Source of the DNA: Escherichia phage T2
Sequence record: NC_054931.1
Reading direction: 5' to 3' (one strand)
DNA length: 64,000 bases
Part shown: positions 5,649-25,838 of the stretch, one piece after another
How the letters are laid out: every line of letters starts with the position of its first letter
Position numbering within the stretch: position 1 is the first letter of the stretch
Notes under the pieces: model-generated
Seen by the model: the letters and a program-made list of their open reading frames with translations, nothing else
The model's database searches: none
Told to the model about the DNA's origin: nothing
Position numbers and translations under genes: made by a program

Positions 5649-6765
5649 TTATGGATAGGTATAGATGATACCAGTTTCTAAAGCAGTTTTATGAATGATG
5701 TATCCATTACGCGATTCTTGGACATCAACTTCTGGATAGTCTTTCATCATCTTCTGAAGAGTGTAACGATGCAGGTAGTATTTACTCTGGATCTTCAGTT
5801 TTCCAATCTTTACCTTCTTCAGTCATTTTTTGGATTTCATCCATAACCCACCAACCGCACCAGATGTAAGCTGAAGTACGATGTGGAAGAGGATGAACAT
5901 AAGGTAATTCACCTTCTGGTTCTGGAGCAACTTTATCAGTTACCTGAACTTGACCTGTTGTTTTAACTGTTTTGCTATCATAATCAGTAGCAGTAACGAC
6001 GGCAGTCACTTCAATAGTTTGACTTCCAACAGATGAAGTATCAACGGTATATACATTAGTTGACCCTTCTACAGGAGAAGAATCTTTCTTCCATGAATAA
6101 GTAATTTGCGCTTCTTCTGGAGCATCAGTAACATTAGCAGTAAATGTAGCCGAAGCATCTTGTTGAACGTTAATAGAAGGAGGAGTCAATGTAACCTGTG
6201 GATTCATTGTCTTCTTATTAACCGTTAATGACACTTCATTAGAAGTAACGCTTAGTGCATCATAATCTGTCGCGGTTACTTGAGCTACACACTTGATTTT
6301 TTAACTCCACTTGTAGTTGGAGTATAGCTAAATGTAGAGTTAGTTTCTCCACCAACTTGTGAATCATCTACATACCACTGATACGTAGCAGATGCTCCAT
6401 CAGGTTGAGAAGCTAAGGCAGCAGTAAATTGAACTGGGGTTCCGATTACTCCAGCGTCAGGGCTATTAGGAGTTACAGCTAAGGTGGTCGTTTGTGTCTT
6501 ATTTTGAACTGTGATAGTTGTAGTAGCTTCTGCTGTTTCAGCTTCAGCTTCTGGAATTGTATTTGTTGCAACTACTTTAATAGTCTTTTGACCGGCAGGT
6601 ATAACTAAAAGTTGCTTCAGCTCCATCTTGTGGAACATTATCTACGCTCCAAGCATAGGTAATAGTTCCACCTTCAGTTTGACCACTGGGTGCAGCAGTA
6701 AACTGCTTGGTTTCATCAATAACCCCTGTCGGTGTTTTAGGAGTTATATCAACTGTAAAAGTCAT
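5649..6765 (-). pseudogene. hoc: hoc (outer capsid decoration protein) disrupted by three frameshifts
   Basis: N-terminus MTFTVDITPKTPTGVIDETKQF matches T4 Hoc; coding continues in three different frames with breaks near 6600, 6295 (A-run) and 5786; C-terminal ...GIIYTYP read in the third frame to stop 5649-5651. Confidence 0.75.
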
Positions 6766-10625: not shown

Positions 10626-11251
10626 TATAGTAACTCAAAGAACTCTTTGAGGCCTCTTATTACATGAGCATGGGTTTTTCCACACTCTGGACATTTAATT
10701 GGAACAGCCAAATAAACGGTAGGCTTTAAAAGCATATCTTTTATAGCTACAATATCTGACTCTGTGATGATAGAATATAAATCTTCTAGTTCTTTTTCAT
10801 TTAAGTCTTCAACTGGAATGCTTTCACCGTTAGCATGAATCGTTTCTATGCATGATACTATCATGTGGGCTATATTTTTATCATCAAAAATTTTAGGGTA
10901 TCGGAATTTAATTTTAATGTCACCCAGTGTATACCAGAGGTCTTCTGGTGCATCTATTTGTGTATGTAATAGATTTATATGGGTTGGTATTTCAGTTCCA
11001 CAGGTGCACTTCCAGGAGTTTTCGTGATTAACTTCTCCAAGAGAATGCGCCCATAAATGAATCAGCAATAGTTCTGATTCTTGGCGGTTTAAATCTTTTG
11101 CATTTGTGCAGTCTTTGATTAGCTTTTTAACAATTACTTCTACGGAACCATTATTTTTGGCAGTAATAAGTTCTAGATATTCTTTAAGCGTGAATGCGCG
11201 ACAATTGATTATTTTAGAACCAACTCTCACATCAAATTTGTATTCATACAT
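10625..11251 (-). CDS. 26: baseplate hub protein gp26
   Basis: 208-aa ORF; synteny 25-26-51-27. Confidence 0.85.
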
Positions 11252-17891: not shown

Positions 17892-17921
17892 ATTATAACA
17901 CAACATAAGGAACTTGTAAAC
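17892..17921 (-). promoter_or_regulatory. T4-type early promoter (GTTTAC, 18-nt spacer, TATAAT) upstream of alt.-3
   Basis: On - strand GTTTACAAGTTCCTTATGTTGTGTTATAAT; near-identical block upstream of alc. Confidence 0.55.
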
Positions 17922-19978
17922 TACATTTTGAACTTTTTAGACATTCCGTTGATGTTAACCAAAGAAGCTAATATTTGAGAAACTTCGTTTTCCTCTTCTT
18001 TTGATTCTTCTACAAGGAATTGATTAAATCCAGCCATTGGACGAACTTCACCAGTTTCCATTAAATGGTCTCCATCATATACTGATTCTTCTAATTGTTC
18101 AGAAGGAGGAACGATTGTACCTTCGATTAGATACTTGTTATAAGCAGTTTCTTTCATAAAGTACGTACTTACTTTATTAATCTTCAGTAAAATTCCACGC
18201 GGTAGAATAACTTCAGCTTCTGATGGAAATCCTGATAAATGACCTGGAACGATAACTTTGATTCGCTCAGCTCCTTTAATTACCATACCCACGCTAGTTT
18301 CAGCATCTTCATTAGCATATGTAGAATGACTACCCATATGCATCAAATCTTCTGCATCAACGGAACCTTCTCCTTCTCCAGAAAATACTGCACCGGAATC
18401 ATCTAGAGCCATATAGTTTTTACCATGCTCGCCAAAGATATTTGGTTTAAGTGATGTCGATACGAAGTTCTTGAAATAGAACATTTTGTTTTCAATGTTG
18501 TGACGCAAAGTTTTAAAGGTAACTTCTTGTCCGCGATAAAGCGTAGTTCCTGGAGGAAGAACTGAACCTTTAGCGAATGCAGAATCCAACGTCTCGATGT
18601 GCTTAATAGCACGTTCCATATATTCTTCACGGGTAGAATCTGGTTTACCCAAAAGGAACGAGTTCATTTCAACATATGAATCTGCACAATAATCTTCAAT
18701 TACATCAGACTCAGCCTGAGTCAGTCCTTTTGGAGTTACTTCAGTGCTTGCATATTCATATGCCTGGGCAGCAGATTCATTAATCAATTTATAAATGCCA
18801 TTCATGACAAATTGAATAATAACTGTCTTTTCATCTGGCGTAGCTTTAGAACCTTTAACCAAATCATTGATAATTTTCTTAATAACATCAAAGCTATTAG
18901 AAATATTAATATCAGCAAGATCACTTAAAATTTTATCAGTTTTATAATCAAAGAATTCTTTATTCTTTAAATATTCTTGAGAACCTTGATATGTTATATC
19001 GCTCTGTAACTTGATAGATGGATCACGTAAACGTGCATGGGCTAATGCAATATGATTTCGGAAGTTTTCTAGTTCATAATCGCTAGATTTAAAACGAGAA
19101 GCACTTCTCATACCACCGATAGCTCCTTTGCTGAAGTTTGAACCAATCTGAATAACGCCAGAGTTCATTGGTCCTTCTGCTTTATATACCGGAACTTTAG
19201 ATTCAAACTCTTGATATTTCTTGGCAGCGAAGCTATCACCCTGAAGTGAAGCATCGACAGTAGAATATTGAGCTTGTGCTGCTAATCGACGACTAATTTT
19301 AGTTTTCTGAATAACCGCTTGGTCAGTACGTTTATCATTTTCTAAAGCAATAGAAGCAGCAACAGCGACAGCTTTAGGAACAGCATCACCTGTTTTAACA
19401 TCTACATAAACATCACCGACCTTCGATTCAACTTTTGCGAATAACTCAGTTGAAATAGGAGGTACACCTGGAATGTCTTCTAAATTGGCATTTTTACGGT
19501 AAACCATAATATATGCATACTTTTTATCATAGTCCCAGATTTCCTTTAAAAGAACATATCGACCTGCTCCTTTAGTACGTACTAAACGGTCAGCAATAAC
19601 TTGCATTTGACGAGCTGCGCCATTTGTTTTACTTTTTAGTACGCGGAATAAGCATGCGTCGATTTTATACTGTTTCATTGTTTGAAGAGCAGTATCAAAA
19701 ACAGCATTAATGACGCCAATTGGATTTCCACCCAAGTTTCTAAGCTTAACCAGCGATAATTTCTCGTTGACACCTATCATTACGATATGCATCATTTTAT
19801 CGCCTGGCTTAACGTTTTTATTTGTATCACCACCAGAGGTGTATGTACAAAATCTAAATCCAGGAAGCACGCTTTCTTCGCCGGCTTGAATAGCAAAAAT
19901 TTGTGGTATTTTATGCTTAGGATTTAAGTTAACAACCGGCGCCGAAGCGCCGTCAAATAATTCTGTAATAAGTTCCAT
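17921..19978 (-). CDS. Alt-family ADP-ribosyltransferase paralog (full length)
   Basis: 685-aa ORF; N-terminal MELITELFD shared with alt; C-terminal R (LYRGQ), STS (FVSTSL) and ExE (SEAEVILPRG) ART motifs. Confidence 0.8.
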   Translation of the reverse strand: MELITELFDGASAPVVNLNPKHKIPQIFAIQAGEESVLPGFRFCTYTSGGDTNKNVKPGDKMMHIVMIGVNEKLSLVKLRNLGGNPIGVINAVFDTALQTMKQYKIDACLFRVLKSKTNGAARQMQVIADRLVRTKGAGRYVLLKEIWDYDKKYAYIMVYRKNANLEDIPGVPPISTELFAKVESKVGDVYVDVKTGDAVPKAVAVAASIALENDKRTDQAVIQKTKISRRLAAQAQYSTVDASLQGDSFAAKKYQEFESKVPVYKAEGPMNSGVIQIGSNFSKGAIGGMRSASRFKSSDYELENFRNHIALAHARLRDPSIKLQSDITYQGSQEYLKNKEFFDYKTDKILSDLADINISNSFDVIKKIINDLVKGSKATPDEKTVIIQFVMNGIYKLINESAAQAYEYASTEVTPKGLTQAESDVIEDYCADSYVEMNSFLLGKPDSTREEYMERAIKHIETLDSAFAKGSVLPPGTTLYRGQEVTFKTLRHNIENKMFYFKNFVSTSLKPNIFGEHGKNYMALDDSGAVFSGEGEGSVDAEDLMHMGSHSTYANEDAETSVGMVIKGAERIKVIVPGHLSGFPSEAEVILPRGILLKINKVSTYFMKETAYNKYLIEGTIVPPSEQLEESVYDGDHLMETGEVRPMAGFNQFLVEESKEEENEVSQILASLVNINGMSKKFKM

Positions 19979-19981
19979 GAT

Positions 19982-22078
19982 TTATCCTTGAACGAACTTG
20001 TAAGGCATGTTTGTAATATCTATGCAAGACGCAATAATTCCGAGAGATGATTCTACTTTCTGTTTAACATTTGATGAAACAAATGATGCAAAGTCAACTC
20101 TGTCTTCTATTTCAATATCACCTGTCATTGCAACTACTTCGCCGGTTTCCATTAAACGGTCTCCGTCATAGATTACCGATTCGGTGAGTTCTTCTGTGGT
20201 CATAACTTCAGCTTGAATGAGTTTTGTATTATTAGACGTGGTTCCGTCATTATTAGAAGCATCAGTTATTTTATTAACTTTGACCATCAATCCGCGCGGT
20301 AGAATAACTTCAGCTTCTGTTGCTATTCCGAGACTTCCTGGATATACAACATTAACTTTATGAGCTCCATCAATTGCCCATCCTATTTGAACTTTAACGT
20401 ATTCAGGATTTTCTTTATACGCTCTTATTTCGTTTGGATTAATAGTTATTCCTTCTTCATTTTTATCAACTGTTAATTCATTGCGAGCTTCTGGTTCTAA
20501 AAGACCAATACCAGCATGTGTAATTCCAAAACGTCCAAAAATGATAGGAGTTAAAGAAGTAGATACAAAATTTCTGAAATAGAACACTTTATTTTTAACT
20601 AGCGCTTCGTATATAGGAGCAGTCATACTTTGAGCACGATAAACTGTAATGCCTTCCGGTATGCGGTCACCATTTTCAAAAGCTGAATCTAAATTATTTA
20701 TAGCAGATTCAATTTCTTTTTCACTCATTACATCATATCGTTCTGGATTGTAACGACCTAAAAGAAGATTATTAATGTCTGTATATCCTGAACCACAATA
20801 CTCTCTAATACCGCGCTTTTGTGATGGTGTATATTTAGAACCATCACAAGCAATAGTAATATCAATCATTGGACCAGCACCAATTCCAGAAAAACTATAA
20901 ATCATTCGTTTGAGGAATTTAGTTTTTGCTGCATTCCAGGCATTTTTAGTTATTTCTCCCCAGACTTCATCTGGCTGCCCTTTACGAGTTTTATTATGTT
21001 TATCAAGCCAATTATCTTTATATTCTTCAAAGAATTGATTGACAGCTGCCGCGTATTTCTCTAAACATTTTATTGAAGTAGTTGGTTCATTTTTAATCGC
21101 GTTAAAAATTACATCTTTAATTTTTTCAGAAACTTCATCAACCTCACTTTTTGAAAAGAATTTATAGTCATAGTGAAGTTCATTCGCAGTTCCTTCGGCA
21201 ATAATTTTTGCTGCCTTTGTTTTAGAAGCTAATGAATTAATTCCAATTTTCATTTCTTCTGCTTCGGGAATTAAAGGAGCGGTAGCAGGCTTATTGAAAT
21301 TAGCTGCGGTAGATTCATACTTCTGGAATAATTCACTTTCAAATCTAGAAGATTCCAATGATTGACTTTGCGCAATTGCTCTACGGGAAATTTTAACTTT
21401 AACGATTACAGCTTGGTCAGTACGTTTATCATTTTCTTGTGCAATAGATGCTGCAATTGCCTCGTTTTTAGTTACTTGAGCTCCAGTATCTTTATTGATA
21501 TAAACATCACCGACCTTCGATTCAACTTTAGTAAAGAGCTCGGTACTAATTTCCGGAACTCCTGGAATGTCTTCTAGTGATACATTTTTGCGATGTATAA
21601 GAATATATGCATACTTTTTATCATAATCCCAGAGTTCCTTAAGAAGGACGTATCTGCCACCTGAACGACTACGGATAAGTCTATCAGCAATAACTTGAAT
21701 TTGTCGAGCTTGACCAGCAGTTTTAGACTTAAGAATACGAAGCATACAAGCATCAATTTTATACTGACGCATTGTTTGCATTGCAACAGTAAAAACTGAA
21801 TTGATATAATTAATTGGGCTTGGACCAAGACCTTTTAATTTAGCAATTGAACCTTTAGCAGTTAATGTAAAAGGAACAATATGCATCATTTTATCGCCCA
21901 TTTTTAAATCGCGATTAGTATCACCTCCAGATGTATAGGTACATAAACGAAAGCCTGGTTGTTCAATTGCATCATCAACATGAACTGAAAAAATTTGTGG
22001 TATTTTCTTCTTTGGATTTAAGTTTGTAATCGGAAGAGTAGTATCTTCGTCAAATAATTCTGTAATGAGTTCCATCAT
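19982..22078 (-). CDS. alt: Alt ADP-ribosyltransferase (internal head protein)
   Basis: 698-aa ORF (MMELITELFD..., second Met may be the start); VYRAQ, FVSTSL and ATEAEVILPRG ART motifs; adjacent to gene 30 as in T4. Confidence 0.85.
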   Translation of the reverse strand: MMELITELFDEDTTLPITNLNPKKKIPQIFSVHVDDAIEQPGFRLCTYTSGGDTNRDLKMGDKMMHIVPFTLTAKGSIAKLKGLGPSPINYINSVFTVAMQTMRQYKIDACMLRILKSKTAGQARQIQVIADRLIRSRSGGRYVLLKELWDYDKKYAYILIHRKNVSLEDIPGVPEISTELFTKVESKVGDVYINKDTGAQVTKNEAIAASIAQENDKRTDQAVIVKVKISRRAIAQSQSLESSRFESELFQKYESTAANFNKPATAPLIPEAEEMKIGINSLASKTKAAKIIAEGTANELHYDYKFFSKSEVDEVSEKIKDVIFNAIKNEPTTSIKCLEKYAAAVNQFFEEYKDNWLDKHNKTRKGQPDEVWGEITKNAWNAAKTKFLKRMIYSFSGIGAGPMIDITIACDGSKYTPSQKRGIREYCGSGYTDINNLLLGRYNPERYDVMSEKEIESAINNLDSAFENGDRIPEGITVYRAQSMTAPIYEALVKNKVFYFRNFVSTSLTPIIFGRFGITHAGIGLLEPEARNELTVDKNEEGITINPNEIRAYKENPEYVKVQIGWAIDGAHKVNVVYPGSLGIATEAEVILPRGLMVKVNKITDASNNDGTTSNNTKLIQAEVMTTEELTESVIYDGDRLMETGEVVAMTGDIEIEDRVDFASFVSSNVKQKVESSLGIIASCIDITNMPYKFVQG

Positions 22079-22129: not shown

Positions 22130-22316
22130 AATAATCTATAGGTAAGAGAGTACGATATATTTCAAACTTTGGACCTTTTTCATAAGCATCAAAAGTTTCT
22201 GTGAATTTATTATAAGCATATGCATCTATAAATTCAATCATGATTTGTGATACAGAAGTAGAAACATCTCCACCTTCTTTTTGAGCTACAACAATTGTTT
22301 CTAAGTAAGCTTTCAT
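22128..22316 (-). CDS. hypothetical protein (alt.1 position)
   Basis: 62-aa ORF between gene 30 and alt. Confidence 0.55.
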   Translation of the reverse strand: MKAYLETIVVAQKEGGDVSTSVSQIMIEFIDAYAYNKFTETFDAYEKGPKFEIYRTLLPIDY

Positions 22317-23776
22317 AGACCAGTTACCTCATGAAAATCGCCAAATACATCTTCGAACGTATTAGCTTTAGTTTTATCTTCGCGTAAACGAATCGCAATC
22401 GGAAGAAATAATTTAACGTAATCAGTGCGGCCATCAGATTTTAACCAACCGTTGCATTCGCACTCTAGAATTTTTCCAATATAATAATTTTGGTTTTCCA
22501 TAATGCGAGTACGGTCAAGTTCATGCGATTTTACACCGGCTTTATCTTTTAAGCCTGAACCAGCATTTACCTTAATTTTTCCGCACTCTGACTCAAGAAT
22601 AAATCCACCTGCTTTAGTAGGGTCTTTACGGTGAGGATAAATTCCTACAATTTTTAAATCAACATCAATTACTTCTTTAAATTTATAGAGATTTTTTGAA
22701 CGAGCATTTTCCCATAATCCATCGATATTTTTGAGAATAATACCTTCAAGACCTTGGTCAATATACTTTTTATAAATTACCTTAGCTTCATCTAGGTTAT
22801 TTACTACCTGGTTTTCAATTAAAATTACTTTATCATATCCCGATGTCATTTGTTCTAGTTTAGAAAAACGTACATCATACTTCAAACGAAATGCAGGAAG
22901 ACCGTATATTTCTACCAACGGGACATAATCCCAGACCTGAAACTTCATGCATTGAGCTTCTTTTTCAGAAATGGTTCCCTTTAAAGATTTATTGGCGATG
23001 CCATTAGATGCAGTACGTGATTCAGCTACTTCTGTGAAGTCTTTAACTTTACTGTTTTCAGGATGAGCATCAAAAAGAAAATCTAGGCCTTCTGGCTCCT
23101 TTTTAACTTGCTCATGGTATACCAATTCGCCATCAATTAACACGCCTTCTGGATGAATCTGGCGGGCTTCAGCGGTCATTTTGATTAATTCTTCCTTAAG
23201 AAGATCTAATCCTAGATATTCATTACCGGCTCGTGATAAAAGACGAACATCATCTAATTCATCACCTCTGACTTCGGCAAAGCACCGAGCCCCATCAGCT
23301 TTTAACTGGGCAAAAGCTGGAAATTTGATATTCTTATTAATGCCTTTTTCATCATAAGAACTTGCAAGCATTTGAGGTTGTTCAGGAATTAAACCTGGCC
23401 AAACTTTGTTTGCAATAGATACTGAAGCACCACATTCAAGGTCTCGCATCATCACTCGACGCAAAACTTCAACATCATCTTTTTTACCATCGGTGATATA
23501 TCCAGTTAATTCCTCAATTGCTGCATTTCCAGTCAATTTCCGAGTAGCTAATGTGAATTCAATGAAGTCAAGCATATCGATAAGAGTCAACATTCCAAAA
23601 CTCTGGGTAGCAATACCAGGTTTAGGCCATTTCTTGATATAATACTGCAACCCACGAGAATAAGTCAGACGATATACTCGTTTAAGCAATTCATTATCTT
23701 TATTCTTTTCAAGAATTGCTTGCTTCTGCTTAGTTGAACCAATAGATGCTATTTCGTTCAGAATTTTAAGAATCAT
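22313..23776 (-). CDS. 30: ATP-dependent DNA ligase gp30
   Basis: 487-aa ORF; size and sequence recognised as T4 DNA ligase. Confidence 0.92.
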   Translation of the reverse strand: MILKILNEIASIGSTKQKQAILEKNKDNELLKRVYRLTYSRGLQYYIKKWPKPGIATQSFGMLTLIDMLDFIEFTLATRKLTGNAAIEELTGYITDGKKDDVEVLRRVMMRDLECGASVSIANKVWPGLIPEQPQMLASSYDEKGINKNIKFPAFAQLKADGARCFAEVRGDELDDVRLLSRAGNEYLGLDLLKEELIKMTAEARQIHPEGVLIDGELVYHEQVKKEPEGLDFLFDAHPENSKVKDFTEVAESRTASNGIANKSLKGTISEKEAQCMKFQVWDYVPLVEIYGLPAFRLKYDVRFSKLEQMTSGYDKVILIENQVVNNLDEAKVIYKKYIDQGLEGIILKNIDGLWENARSKNLYKFKEVIDVDLKIVGIYPHRKDPTKAGGFILESECGKIKVNAGSGLKDKAGVKSHELDRTRIMENQNYYIGKILECECNGWLKSDGRTDYVKLFLPIAIRLREDKTKANTFEDVFGDFHEVTGL

Positions 23777-24042
23777 TATTCATCCTTCAGAGTTTGGTTT
23801 ACAGCTCTATTATAAATCAATTCATCATTAAGCTCAGTCAAAGACCTATGATATGTGGTTCTAACTTTATTTCCTTGCATCCAGTGCTTGACGTAAATGA
23901 AACCTTGCTCTACACATTTTTTAAAAATTCGTTCGTCTTTTTGAGCTCGGAATTCTGGATTGCATCTAAAAAATTGATTTACGTGACCGTAATCACGTGT
24001 AGTATTACCTTCATTTTCATAAATAGTGTGAACAACAAACAT
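23776..24042 (-). CDS. hypothetical protein (30.1 position)
   Basis: 88-aa ORF, ATGA-coupled to ligase gene. Confidence 0.55.
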   Translation of the reverse strand: MFVVHTIYENEGNTTRDYGHVNQFFRCNPEFRAQKDERIFKKCVEQGFIYVKHWMQGNKVRTTYHRSLTELNDELIYNRAVNQTLKDE

Positions 24043-24884
24043 TAGAATGCTCCTTGGAAAATATTATCACCACTACCACTAGTAAGTCTATTAAAATACC
24101 CTGCGTCGCCAGGCTTAAAACTCCATGTATGGAATGGATGCATCTGGTGTGAGTGTGTATAATATGGATTATAAGGATTAAATCCAGGAGTTCTCCAGGT
24201 AGTGTTCCAAGGAAAAGAATCGTTTTTAATCATCTTCTCGATTGTATCTTTTATGGCTTTTTCACTATCAAAACTTTCTTTATTTTCCTTCGGCGAAAAA
24301 AGCTTATTTTCTACATCATTCCATGTATAAACCCGCTGAGCAGTTTTTGGAATATTGTCACGCTCTCCTCGAGCCATCCAATAAACAGGAACACGTAATA
24401 TTTCACTCGCATGGTCGCAGTGGTGAGCGAGATCGTCAATATAACAAATTACGTTATATTTCTCTTTTGCCTTTTTGAACAGCTCTTCTTTTGAAGAATC
24501 ATGACCACACATCAATACTTCTGAGAAGGCACCAGGAAAAAGAGCATTCAAATTAAATTGACGATTCAGCAGAGCGTCAATAGAATCGCCCAATGCTGTA
24601 ACAGCTACAAAATTATAATCTTCCTTTAATTTGTTAATTACACACAGAGCATCTTTATATGGAGACAAGTAACGAATAAAATCTGAACGATTGTATTTTT
24701 CAATTAACTTGACACCAAGTTCTTCATCACAGTTAAAGAGTTTACCAGGTGAAATAAATTTCTCATCTTGGATCATTTTTAAAATATGTTCTAACGGAAG
24801 ATTATATTTCTGAGCAAAATAAGGAAGGCCTGATTGCCAGCTTAAACATACTCCATCAATATCAGTTAAAATAGTAGGCTTCAT
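24042..24884 (-). CDS. HAD-superfamily hydrolase-like protein (30.2 position)
   Basis: 280-aa ORF with N-terminal DIDGV (HAD motif I) and internal YIDD motif. Confidence 0.6.
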   Translation of the reverse strand: MKPTILTDIDGVCLSWQSGLPYFAQKYNLPLEHILKMIQDEKFISPGKLFNCDEELGVKLIEKYNRSDFIRYLSPYKDALCVINKLKEDYNFVAVTALGDSIDALLNRQFNLNALFPGAFSEVLMCGHDSSKEELFKKAKEKYNVICYIDDLAHHCDHASEILRVPVYWMARGERDNIPKTAQRVYTWNDVENKLFSPKENKESFDSEKAIKDTIEKMIKNDSFPWNTTWRTPGFNPYNPYYTHSHQMHPFHTWSFKPGDAGYFNRLTSGSGDNIFQGAF

Positions 24885-25339
24885 AGAGAGTCTCTTAATA
24901 GGTTTAACACATCAATAAATTCAGCTTCGGTTAGTATTGTATCATCTTTTGTTAGACCACTAGCCATGCTGTGCTTCAAAACTTTTCCTTTCGAGGCTAG
25001 TAATGCATCACGAAAGCCCTTGTTTTGAATCGCTGCTTCAAAATATGCATTTGTATATAATTCTTTCCACGCTGGGGAGTATCTTGAAAACGGAACTCCG
25101 AGCCAGAAGAGGGTCCCACGGTCCTGAGCTCTAGCATAAGACCTTCCAGCTTGTTGGGCGGCAAGCCCGGATAACCCAAATATACGACGTTGTTGTTCAA
25201 CATTTTTCACCTTGCATCCTTGGAGGAATCCTTCAAGACCTCCGAATTGAATACCATCCATGACGAAAGGCCATTGGGCGAAATTACTTAATGCGCATGA
25301 TGGCCATCTAAAATTGCTTCTAATCTCTAACTCAGACAT
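24881..25339 (-). CDS. YbiA/NADAR (DUF1768)-like protein (30.3 position)
   Basis: 152-aa ORF; LSNFAQWPFVMDG...FLQGCK resembles the E. coli YbiA core FSNFAAWPIKVDG...FQAQK. Confidence 0.6.
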   Translation of the reverse strand: MSELEIRSNFRWPSCALSNFAQWPFVMDGIQFGGLEGFLQGCKVKNVEQQRRIFGLSGLAAQQAGRSYARAQDRGTLFWLGVPFSRYSPAWKELYTNAYFEAAIQNKGFRDALLASKGKVLKHSMASGLTKDDTILTEAEFIDVLNLLRDSL

Positions 25340-25550
25340 CTTTAATACTTTATAATTTCAACATCCGCCCAATGACCATAACTTGGCAGACGGTCTTCAA
25401 TAGATAATCCACCATCATATTTAAGCATTTTAATTGTCATAATATGGCTCTAAATGGTCTTCTGTGAGCGTAGAAACGTCAGTCACACGATAAGTAACTT
25501 CAACCATTTCCGTACCTAATAATTTCTGAATTAATTTCTTAAACATATTA

Positions 25551-25838
25551 TCAGAACCTCATCTGAAAACCGTGTGATTTAACATTACCGCCGCCAATAT
25601 CAGAAATATTAATTTCACGCGCAATTGAAGGGTCAATGTCAATTTCGCGATTGAGTTTAGTGATAGCTAAAGTATCACGCCCATTTACTGTACGGAATTC
25701 TAAAGGGCAGACTACATTAACGTAATTTTTAATCGATTCACTGGTAGGTTGCAAATGAGCAGGAAGGTCTTTAGGCGCCTTAGAGAAAACCACTTCACAA
25801 AAATTTTTGCGGGTATCAAAATAAGTAGTCATAAACAT
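25551..25838 (-). CDS. hypothetical protein
   Basis: 95 codons from ATG 25838 preceded by GAGGAA; ORF track starts at an upstream TTG. Confidence 0.5.
   Translation of the reverse strand: MFMTTYFDTRKNFCEVVFSKAPKDLPAHLQPTSESIKNYVNVVCPLEFRTVNGRDTLAITKLNREIDIDPSIAREINISDIGGGNVKSHGFQMRF

Follow-up and report, generated by a model that had tools for sequence, protein, structure and literature searches.

Gene 30.3 (adfN) of Escherichia phage T2, a stand-alone phage NADAR ADP-ribosylglycohydrolase directed against DarTG1

Phage proteins with different modes of action permit escape from DarT. AdfA (gp61.2) is one of these and, as AdfA(R164H), binds DarT1 rather than repairing DNA, while AdfM (tk.4) is a macrodomain protein directed against DarTG2, whose toxin modifies thymidine. 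NADAR(Bas32) and NADAR(Bas60) use the same chemistry against DarTG1 as AdfN (anti-DarT factor NADAR), the product of gene 30.3, but belong to other NADAR branches and, unlike AdfN, also neutralise DarT1 in uninfected cells. Gene 30.3 was renamed adfN by Johannesman, Awasthi, Carlson and LeRoux (Nat Commun 2025, PMC11825919; preprint PMC11257639). Here, we describe this gene in Escherichia phage T2, in a stretch of 64,000 nucleotides of sequence record NC_054931.1 (the window), where an ATG-to-TGA open reading frame (ORF) at positions 24881..25339 of the minus strand encodes a protein of 152 amino acids. With a probability of about 96%, this ORF is adfN and encodes a stand-alone, phage-type NADAR DNA ADP-ribosylglycohydrolase that defeats DarTG1. 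Both the identity of AdfN and its function against DarTG1 were already known, and the present analysis is a rediscovery without new biology.

The activity and the phenotype of AdfN, those in T2 included, rest on published experiments. Crosses of T2 and T4 with RB69 place the resistance to DarTG1 in the 3' portion of gene 30.3 (PMC11257639). Deletion of adfN abolishes plaquing on DarTG1 cells in T2 as well as in T4, and RB69 is rescued when T4 AdfN is supplied in trans (PMC11825919). In a transposon screen, 30.3/adfN was essential on DarTG1 hosts only and dispensable on E. coli K-12. Purified AdfN strips ADP-ribose off DarT1-modified DNA in a dot blot, in which the E36A protein served as the catalytically inactive control (PMC11825919). 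Two-hybrid assays gave no sign of binding between AdfN and DarT1, and DarTG2 is not countered by AdfN (PMC11825919, PMC11257639). When oligonucleotides are offered, T4 gp30.3 hydrolyses those carrying guanosine-ADP-ribose but not those carrying thymidine-ADP-ribose, and it is no antitoxin in uninfected E. coli cells (PMC11125620). The same protein is found among the NADARs that remove ADP-ribose (ADPr) from G (G-ADPr) and is absent from those that remove C-ADPr (PMC12945103). An earlier reading of the raw letters (the sequence-only reading) had suggested an anti-defence enzyme that reverses DarT-type ADP-ribosylation, a role since found to be published for gp30.3 under the name AdfN (PMC11825919, PMC11125620). 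The check named in that reading, infection of DarTG hosts by phage that carries or lacks the gene, is likewise in print with T2 included, the phage being sensitive when adfN is deleted (PMC11825919). From raw sequence alone, a genuine enzyme was picked out and the function that the literature reports for it was predicted, which makes this locus a positive control.

The assignment of the T2 ORF to this gene is direct. The protein matches the Pfam family PF08010 (Phage_30_3, "Bacteriophage protein GP30.3") with E=2.6e-70 and 235.1 bits against a cut-off of 36, covering profile positions 1-138 of 138, and it also matches phrog_652 (E=1.3e-51). It has the same length as T4 gp30.3 (NP_049816) and is identical to it at 150 of 152 residues. 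The two substitutions, L113 in T2 for Q in T4 and M124 in T2 for I in T4, both lie outside the conserved catalytic positions. A 2.7-kilobase (kb) stretch around adfN is 100% identical to the T2 genomes AP018813.1, PV958097.1 and MH751506.1. The gene occupies the orthologous position in the T-even block from gene 30 to rIII, and in T4, its sister phage, the same gene sits as in T2 between 30.2 and the region of 30.4-30.6.

Membership of the wider NADAR superfamily was seen with profiles and structures. The codons for residues 17-43 (LSNFAQWPFVMDGIQFGGLEGFLQGCK; 25211..25291, minus strand) form the NADAR core motif, which aligns to residues 29-55 of YbiA. The sequence-only reading had quoted this motif from the 152-residue ORF and had given FSNFAAWPIKVDGKTWPTSEHYFQAQK as its YbiA counterpart; both are exact, the latter being residues 29-55 of E. 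coli K-12 YbiA (ybiA from NC_000913). A BLASTP comparison of AdfN with YbiA gave 19 identities in 57 positions (33%; pairwise E=8e-6). An alignment of 47 AdfN relatives with 35-86% identity (A1), drawn from 114 database hits, was used as a profile against all PDB sequences, and YbiA (2b3w) was its sole significant match (E=0.0041), over the core motif. With hhalign, A1 and YbiA aligned over 91 columns with 94% probability (E=1.3e-7). These pairwise and profile scores indicate that the similarity of the motifs in AdfN and YbiA exceeds chance. The Pfam NADAR family PF08719 (DUF1768) is matched individually by 21 of the 47 relatives (best E=1.5e-7), and several JGI records label relatives of AdfN "YbiA (DUF1768 family)". 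The alpha+beta fold of NADAR proteins, a helical core with small flanking beta-hairpins, is present in AdfN, and the NADAR/YbiA fold expected from the raw sequence was recovered by profile and structure searches alike. The fold of the gene 30.3 product and its identity are established by computation, and the T2 protein belongs to the gp30.3/phage NADAR family and to the NADAR superfamily.

The residues at which NADAR proteins carry out catalysis are conserved. Glu36 (codon GAA, 25232..25234, minus strand) aligns with E48 of YbiA and contacts the distal ribose, and Lys43 (codon AAG, 25211..25213, minus strand), the phosphate-binding catalytic lysine, aligns with K55, the two forming the E-x6-K core that characterises NADAR proteins. 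In the region of the core motif, A16, L17, S18, N19, F20, F25, E36, G37, F38 and Q40 are invariant in A1, and Lys43 is conserved in at least 90% of its members. E36 and K43 of AdfN have been equated with E43 and K50 of PnNADAR, residues in contact with the distal ribose and the pyrophosphate, and in the E. coli C7 NADAR the lysine equivalent to K43 is essential (PMC11543638). AdfN variants with E36A or K43A give partial rescue only (PMC11825919). A third position, His123 (codon CAC, 24971..24973, minus strand), is a marker residue of phage NADARs. It is invariant in the 47 relatives of A1 and in 78 phage genes from IMG/VR, which were retrieved with patterns that omit this position. According to the literature, YbiA-type proteins have Glu as the family-defining residue, those of the DarG1/BC4488 type Asp, and those of the phage gp30.3 type His. 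The hhalign alignment ends at K122/V124, and its extension by one residue sets H123 opposite E125 of YbiA, which fits the published Glu/Asp/His scheme. The conserved catalytic residues are present on alignment, E36 and H123 being invariant and K43 reaching at least 90%. Towards the C-terminus, T134, L136, T137, E140, L145 and R149 are invariant in A1. The last residues, approximately 138-152 (24884..24928, minus strand), form a helix (H138-151) in the predicted model. In RB69, which is sensitive to DarTG1, a frameshift deletes the last 15 residues and thereby this helix, and T4 AdfN truncated in this way shows reduced activity and partial rescue (PMC11257639, PMC11825919).

The mechanism is very probably the following. 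Upon infection of a DarTG1 cell by T2, the DarT1 toxin would ADP-ribosylate guanine bases of the phage DNA and block replication. AdfN would then cleave the N-glycosidic bond that joins ADP-ribose to guanine, by which the base would be restored and replication could resume. Catalysis would depend on Glu36 for the distal ribose, Lys43 for the pyrophosphate, and His123 in place of the Glu of YbiA-type or the Asp of DarG1-type enzymes, while the C-terminal helix is needed for full activity. In this scheme AdfN is an orphan, phage-borne mimic of DarG1 that acts on the modified DNA and not via binding of the toxin, and adfN is a gene of the early region encoding a minimal, stand-alone enzyme. With AdfN, T2 clearly exemplifies a phage that undoes a DNA-modifying immune system by means of an orphan copy of a bacterial antitoxin-type enzyme.

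The resemblance to DarG1, represented by the Geobacter lovleyi NADAR 8bat and the E. coli C7 NADAR, has its limits. The orphan context of adfN is observed: T2 AdfN differs from DarG1 in having no adjacent DarT1 gene, and no DarT-like gene is found in the annotated T2 region, where the neighbours are 30.2, of the HAD fold, and small ORFs. AdfN corresponds to the helical core only (152 amino acids compared to 219 for 8bat), has no N-terminal extra elements, and carries His123 instead of the catalytic Asp. Moreover, it reportedly cannot rescue uninfected cells from DarT1, and is DarG1-like only during T-even infection. Because it has no DarT1 neighbour, His for Asp, a core-only architecture and no antitoxin activity without infection, AdfN is not a strict DarG1 antitoxin, even though it functions like one.

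Since YbiA is the closest sequence match to AdfN among the solved structures, it may be asked whether AdfN is instead a YbiA-type metabolic N-glycosidase that acts on reactive intermediates of riboflavin biosynthesis, with a role in housekeeping or damage control. The YbiA family is linked to this activity, and the ybiA operon is controlled by LexA and induced by DNA damage (PMC11125620). In the NCBIfam scan, AdfN did give a faint match to TIGR02464, the riboflavin intermediates N-glycosidase (E=0.16), but its score of 12.2 bits is far under the cut-off of 73.7. YbiA is encoded by a host gene adjoining dinG and ybiB, whereas AdfN is phage-borne, and the Glu that defines the YbiA family is replaced in AdfN by His123, which is invariant across the phage family. 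The only phenotype reported for adfN is sensitivity to DarTG1, the gene being dispensable on E. coli K-12. A metabolic role of this kind has next to no probability and, given the His for Glu and the score for TIGR02464, AdfN is not a YbiA-family N-glycosidase.

Nothing contradicts the assignment of AdfN as a DNA ADP-ribosylglycohydrolase that defeats DarTG1 in T2, which carries a number of caveats. The biochemistry was performed with the T4 protein, which differs from that of T2 in 2 of 152 residues, although the effect of the deletion was determined in T2 itself. The analogy with an antitoxin is incomplete, as DarT1 is not neutralised in uninfected E. coli. T2 AdfN alone matches neither PF08719 (at E<=1) nor any of the PADLOC models, which means that for the single T2 sequence the link to NADAR needs profiles or structure; a phmmer search of the PDB with it returned only a chance match (E=0.37). 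Finally, the equivalence of H123 with the catalytic Glu/Asp comes from the one-residue extension of the hhalign alignment together with literature statements, not from superposition.

What His123 does chemically, and why AdfN is active in the T-even context but fails as an antitoxin in the absence of infection, can only be inferred. The invariant His123 might tune AdfN to guanine-ADP-ribose in the hydroxymethylcytosine-containing DNA of T-even phages; alternatively, AdfN might in addition remove ADP-ribose from RNA, or marks that Alt and Mod leave as by-products. If true, either property would explain an activity in infection and none in uninfected cells. It is, however, unlikely that AdfN has a further physiological substrate or an unusual specificity.

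The genetic surroundings of adfN resemble those in T4. On the minus strand, the gene order begins with two Alt-type genes and continues with alt.1, the DNA ligase gene 30 (22313-23776), 30.1 (a match to DUF3045), 30.2, 30.3, small ORFs, 30.6 and 30.7, and the block alt - alt.1 - 30 - 30.1 - 30.2 - 30.3 ... 30.7 of T2 is mirrored in T4. The two Alt-type ADP-ribosyltransferase ORFs (17921-19978 and 19982-22078, minus strand), which the sequence-only reading had pointed out, both match PF03496. Their location about 2.8 kb from adfN in a common early-region block suggests that AdfN could, as its main or an additional role, erase or tune the ADP-ribosylation made by the phage itself, in the form of Alt, ModA and ModB marks on host proteins or RNA. 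Yet among 80 related loci, fetched for neighbourhood counts with a radius of 3 kb, none (0/80) has an Alt relative within this distance, which argues against a specific functional link between adfN and the phage transferases. The T4-type neighbourhood (30.7 ... 30.3-30.2-30.1-ligase-alt.1-alt) is kept in a relative with 58% identity and lost in more distant loci, and the adjacency of adfN to the ligase gene, 30.1 and 30.2 is limited to T4-like synteny. The Alt and Mod enzymes write arginine-linked protein ADP-ribose. The NADAR substrates in the cited literature are ADP-ribosylated DNA or RNA bases and intermediates of the riboflavin pathway, and not ADP-ribosylated proteins. Alt, ModA and ModB are unmentioned in the AdfN paper (PMC11825919), and adfN is dispensable in the absence of DarTG1. 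A modulator of Alt-driven ADP-ribosylation, the other role considered from the raw sequence, thus found no support, and an erasing or tuning of the marks of the phage itself is very unlikely.

Around adfN, the genomes of T2 and T4 differ in several details. The tandem Alt-type genes of T2 are full-length, with products of 685 and 698 amino acids that are 41% identical and both contain the segment EAEVILPRG; T4 has one alt and the short ORFs alt.-1 and alt.-2, which are annotated there as remnants of an old duplication. Between 30.3 and 30.6 (25340-25560, minus strand, compared with 10759-11159 of the T4 locus, L002), T2 has a gap of about 183 base pairs relative to T4 that extends across T4 gene 30.5. 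T2 is without gene 30.5, and its 30.4 region is rearranged or divergent, where two very small annotated ORFs (32 and 38 amino acids) remain. The ORF upstream of adfN has its stop 2 nucleotides before the adfN ATG in T2, while in T4 gene 30.4 overlaps adfN. Promoter-like sites around adfN numbered 14 against a shuffle expectation of 11.4 +/- 3.7, which is uninformative on expression.

Annotation lags behind the literature for this gene. A Pfam scan with the single sequence yields just the uninformative name of PF08010. The work on AdfN assigned a function to a long-standing "hypothetical" gene of T4, while PV958097.1 (T2) and NC_000866.4 (T4) continue to list adfN as a "hypothetical protein". 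The early block of AP018813.1 carries implausible names like 'head vertex protein', 'secreted LysM/SCP-PR1 domain protein' and 'high-light inducible protein', and across the adfN region the remaining matches of the T2 group bear solely hypothetical proteins or implausible names.

Relatives of AdfN are widespread in large phages. They are encoded on 236 stretches from IMG/VR, and occur on contigs of 82 and 308 kb and in cluster records of up to 162 and 424 kb. The loci of distant relatives contain many small unannotated ORFs, with Thg1 and NUDIX genes nearby in one case. A role of phage NADARs generally in the handling of soluble signals was proposed by Iyer et al. (2022), and a NUDIX gene is found at a distance of a few kb from some remote genes of the gp30.3 family, on contigs as large as 308 kb, which would agree with the idea that AdfN degrades small soluble immune signals or toxins derived from ADP-ribose (e.g., of the cyclic ADP-ribose type) and not DNA adducts. 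In direct assays, however, ADP-ribose is removed from DNA, and the genetic evidence points specifically to DarTG1. AdfN might degrade soluble signals in addition, but there is no support for this, and the explanation is extremely improbable.

On the very large, jumbo-phage-like contigs L004-L007, gp30.3 homologues of about 39% identity (in L004, the gene at 6001-6468) have NUDIX and Thg1-like genes as well as an AAA ATPase at a distance of a few kb, which may represent a wider ADP-ribose or RNA-repair neighbourhood. Two distant members of the gp30.3 family, P0082 (L008:5001-5468) and P0028, match the candidate-defence model PDC-M42C of PADLOC with E=3.4e-5 and 0.025, respectively. PDC-M42C, an uncharacterised candidate defence component, may itself be NADAR-like.

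Inside adfN, the counterpart of the T4 ORF 30.3' is located in another frame of the minus strand (24997-25203). It comprises 68 amino acids in T2 and 75 as annotated in T4. Between the two phages, 4 of its 68 residues are substituted, against 2 of 152 in the adfN frame. In the first six homologues the +1 frame seemed unusually open. A family-wide overlapping 30.3' was nevertheless rejected, with a median codon-shuffle p of 0.35 for 37 representatives of less than 80% identity, in many of which the +1 frame is open for 22-40 codons only. The combined p of the control frame was similar (0.027 vs 0.016).

Gene 30.2 (24042..24884, minus strand) lies downstream of adfN and encodes 280 amino acids. 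Its start overlaps the adfN stop (ATGA), and the two genes are adjacent in close relatives. A functional coupling of gp30.2 and AdfN was rejected, since a gp30.2 relative occurs within 3 kb in only 19 of the 80 loci, all of them compatible with T4-like synteny, and the genes adjoining distant adfN homologues are unrelated to gp30.2. With regard to the AdfN mechanism, gp30.2 is described here as context only. Neither the Pfam, NCBIfam and PADLOC models nor a full-text literature search for "gp30.2" returned a match or a paper. The sequence-only reading had called this neighbour HAD-like from its DIDGV motif, and motifs, profile and Foldseek comparison all bear this out. The segment TDIDGV is found at residues 7-12, and in 37 gp30.2 relatives there is no variation at D8 and D10 (motif I, DIDGV), K132, D150 and D151 and hardly any at T96, by which all four HAD motifs (I DxD, II S/T, III K, IV DD) are conserved. 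The gp30.2 profile matched mouse 5'(3')-deoxyribonucleotidase 2jao with E=0.025. In the AlphaFold2 model, the predicted local distance difference test score exceeds 90 for residues 1-190 and is below 50 for most of 228-280, a C-terminal region that is rich in Pro, Asn, Tyr and His near its end. A Foldseek search with this model gave 104 hits at E<=0.001; among the matches listed, 50 of 50 have the HAD fold, and deoxyribonucleotidases are among those with the lowest root-mean-square deviation. On the strength of the model, gp30.2 can be assigned with confidence as a predicted HAD-superfamily hydrolase that resembles 5'(3')-deoxyribonucleotidases.
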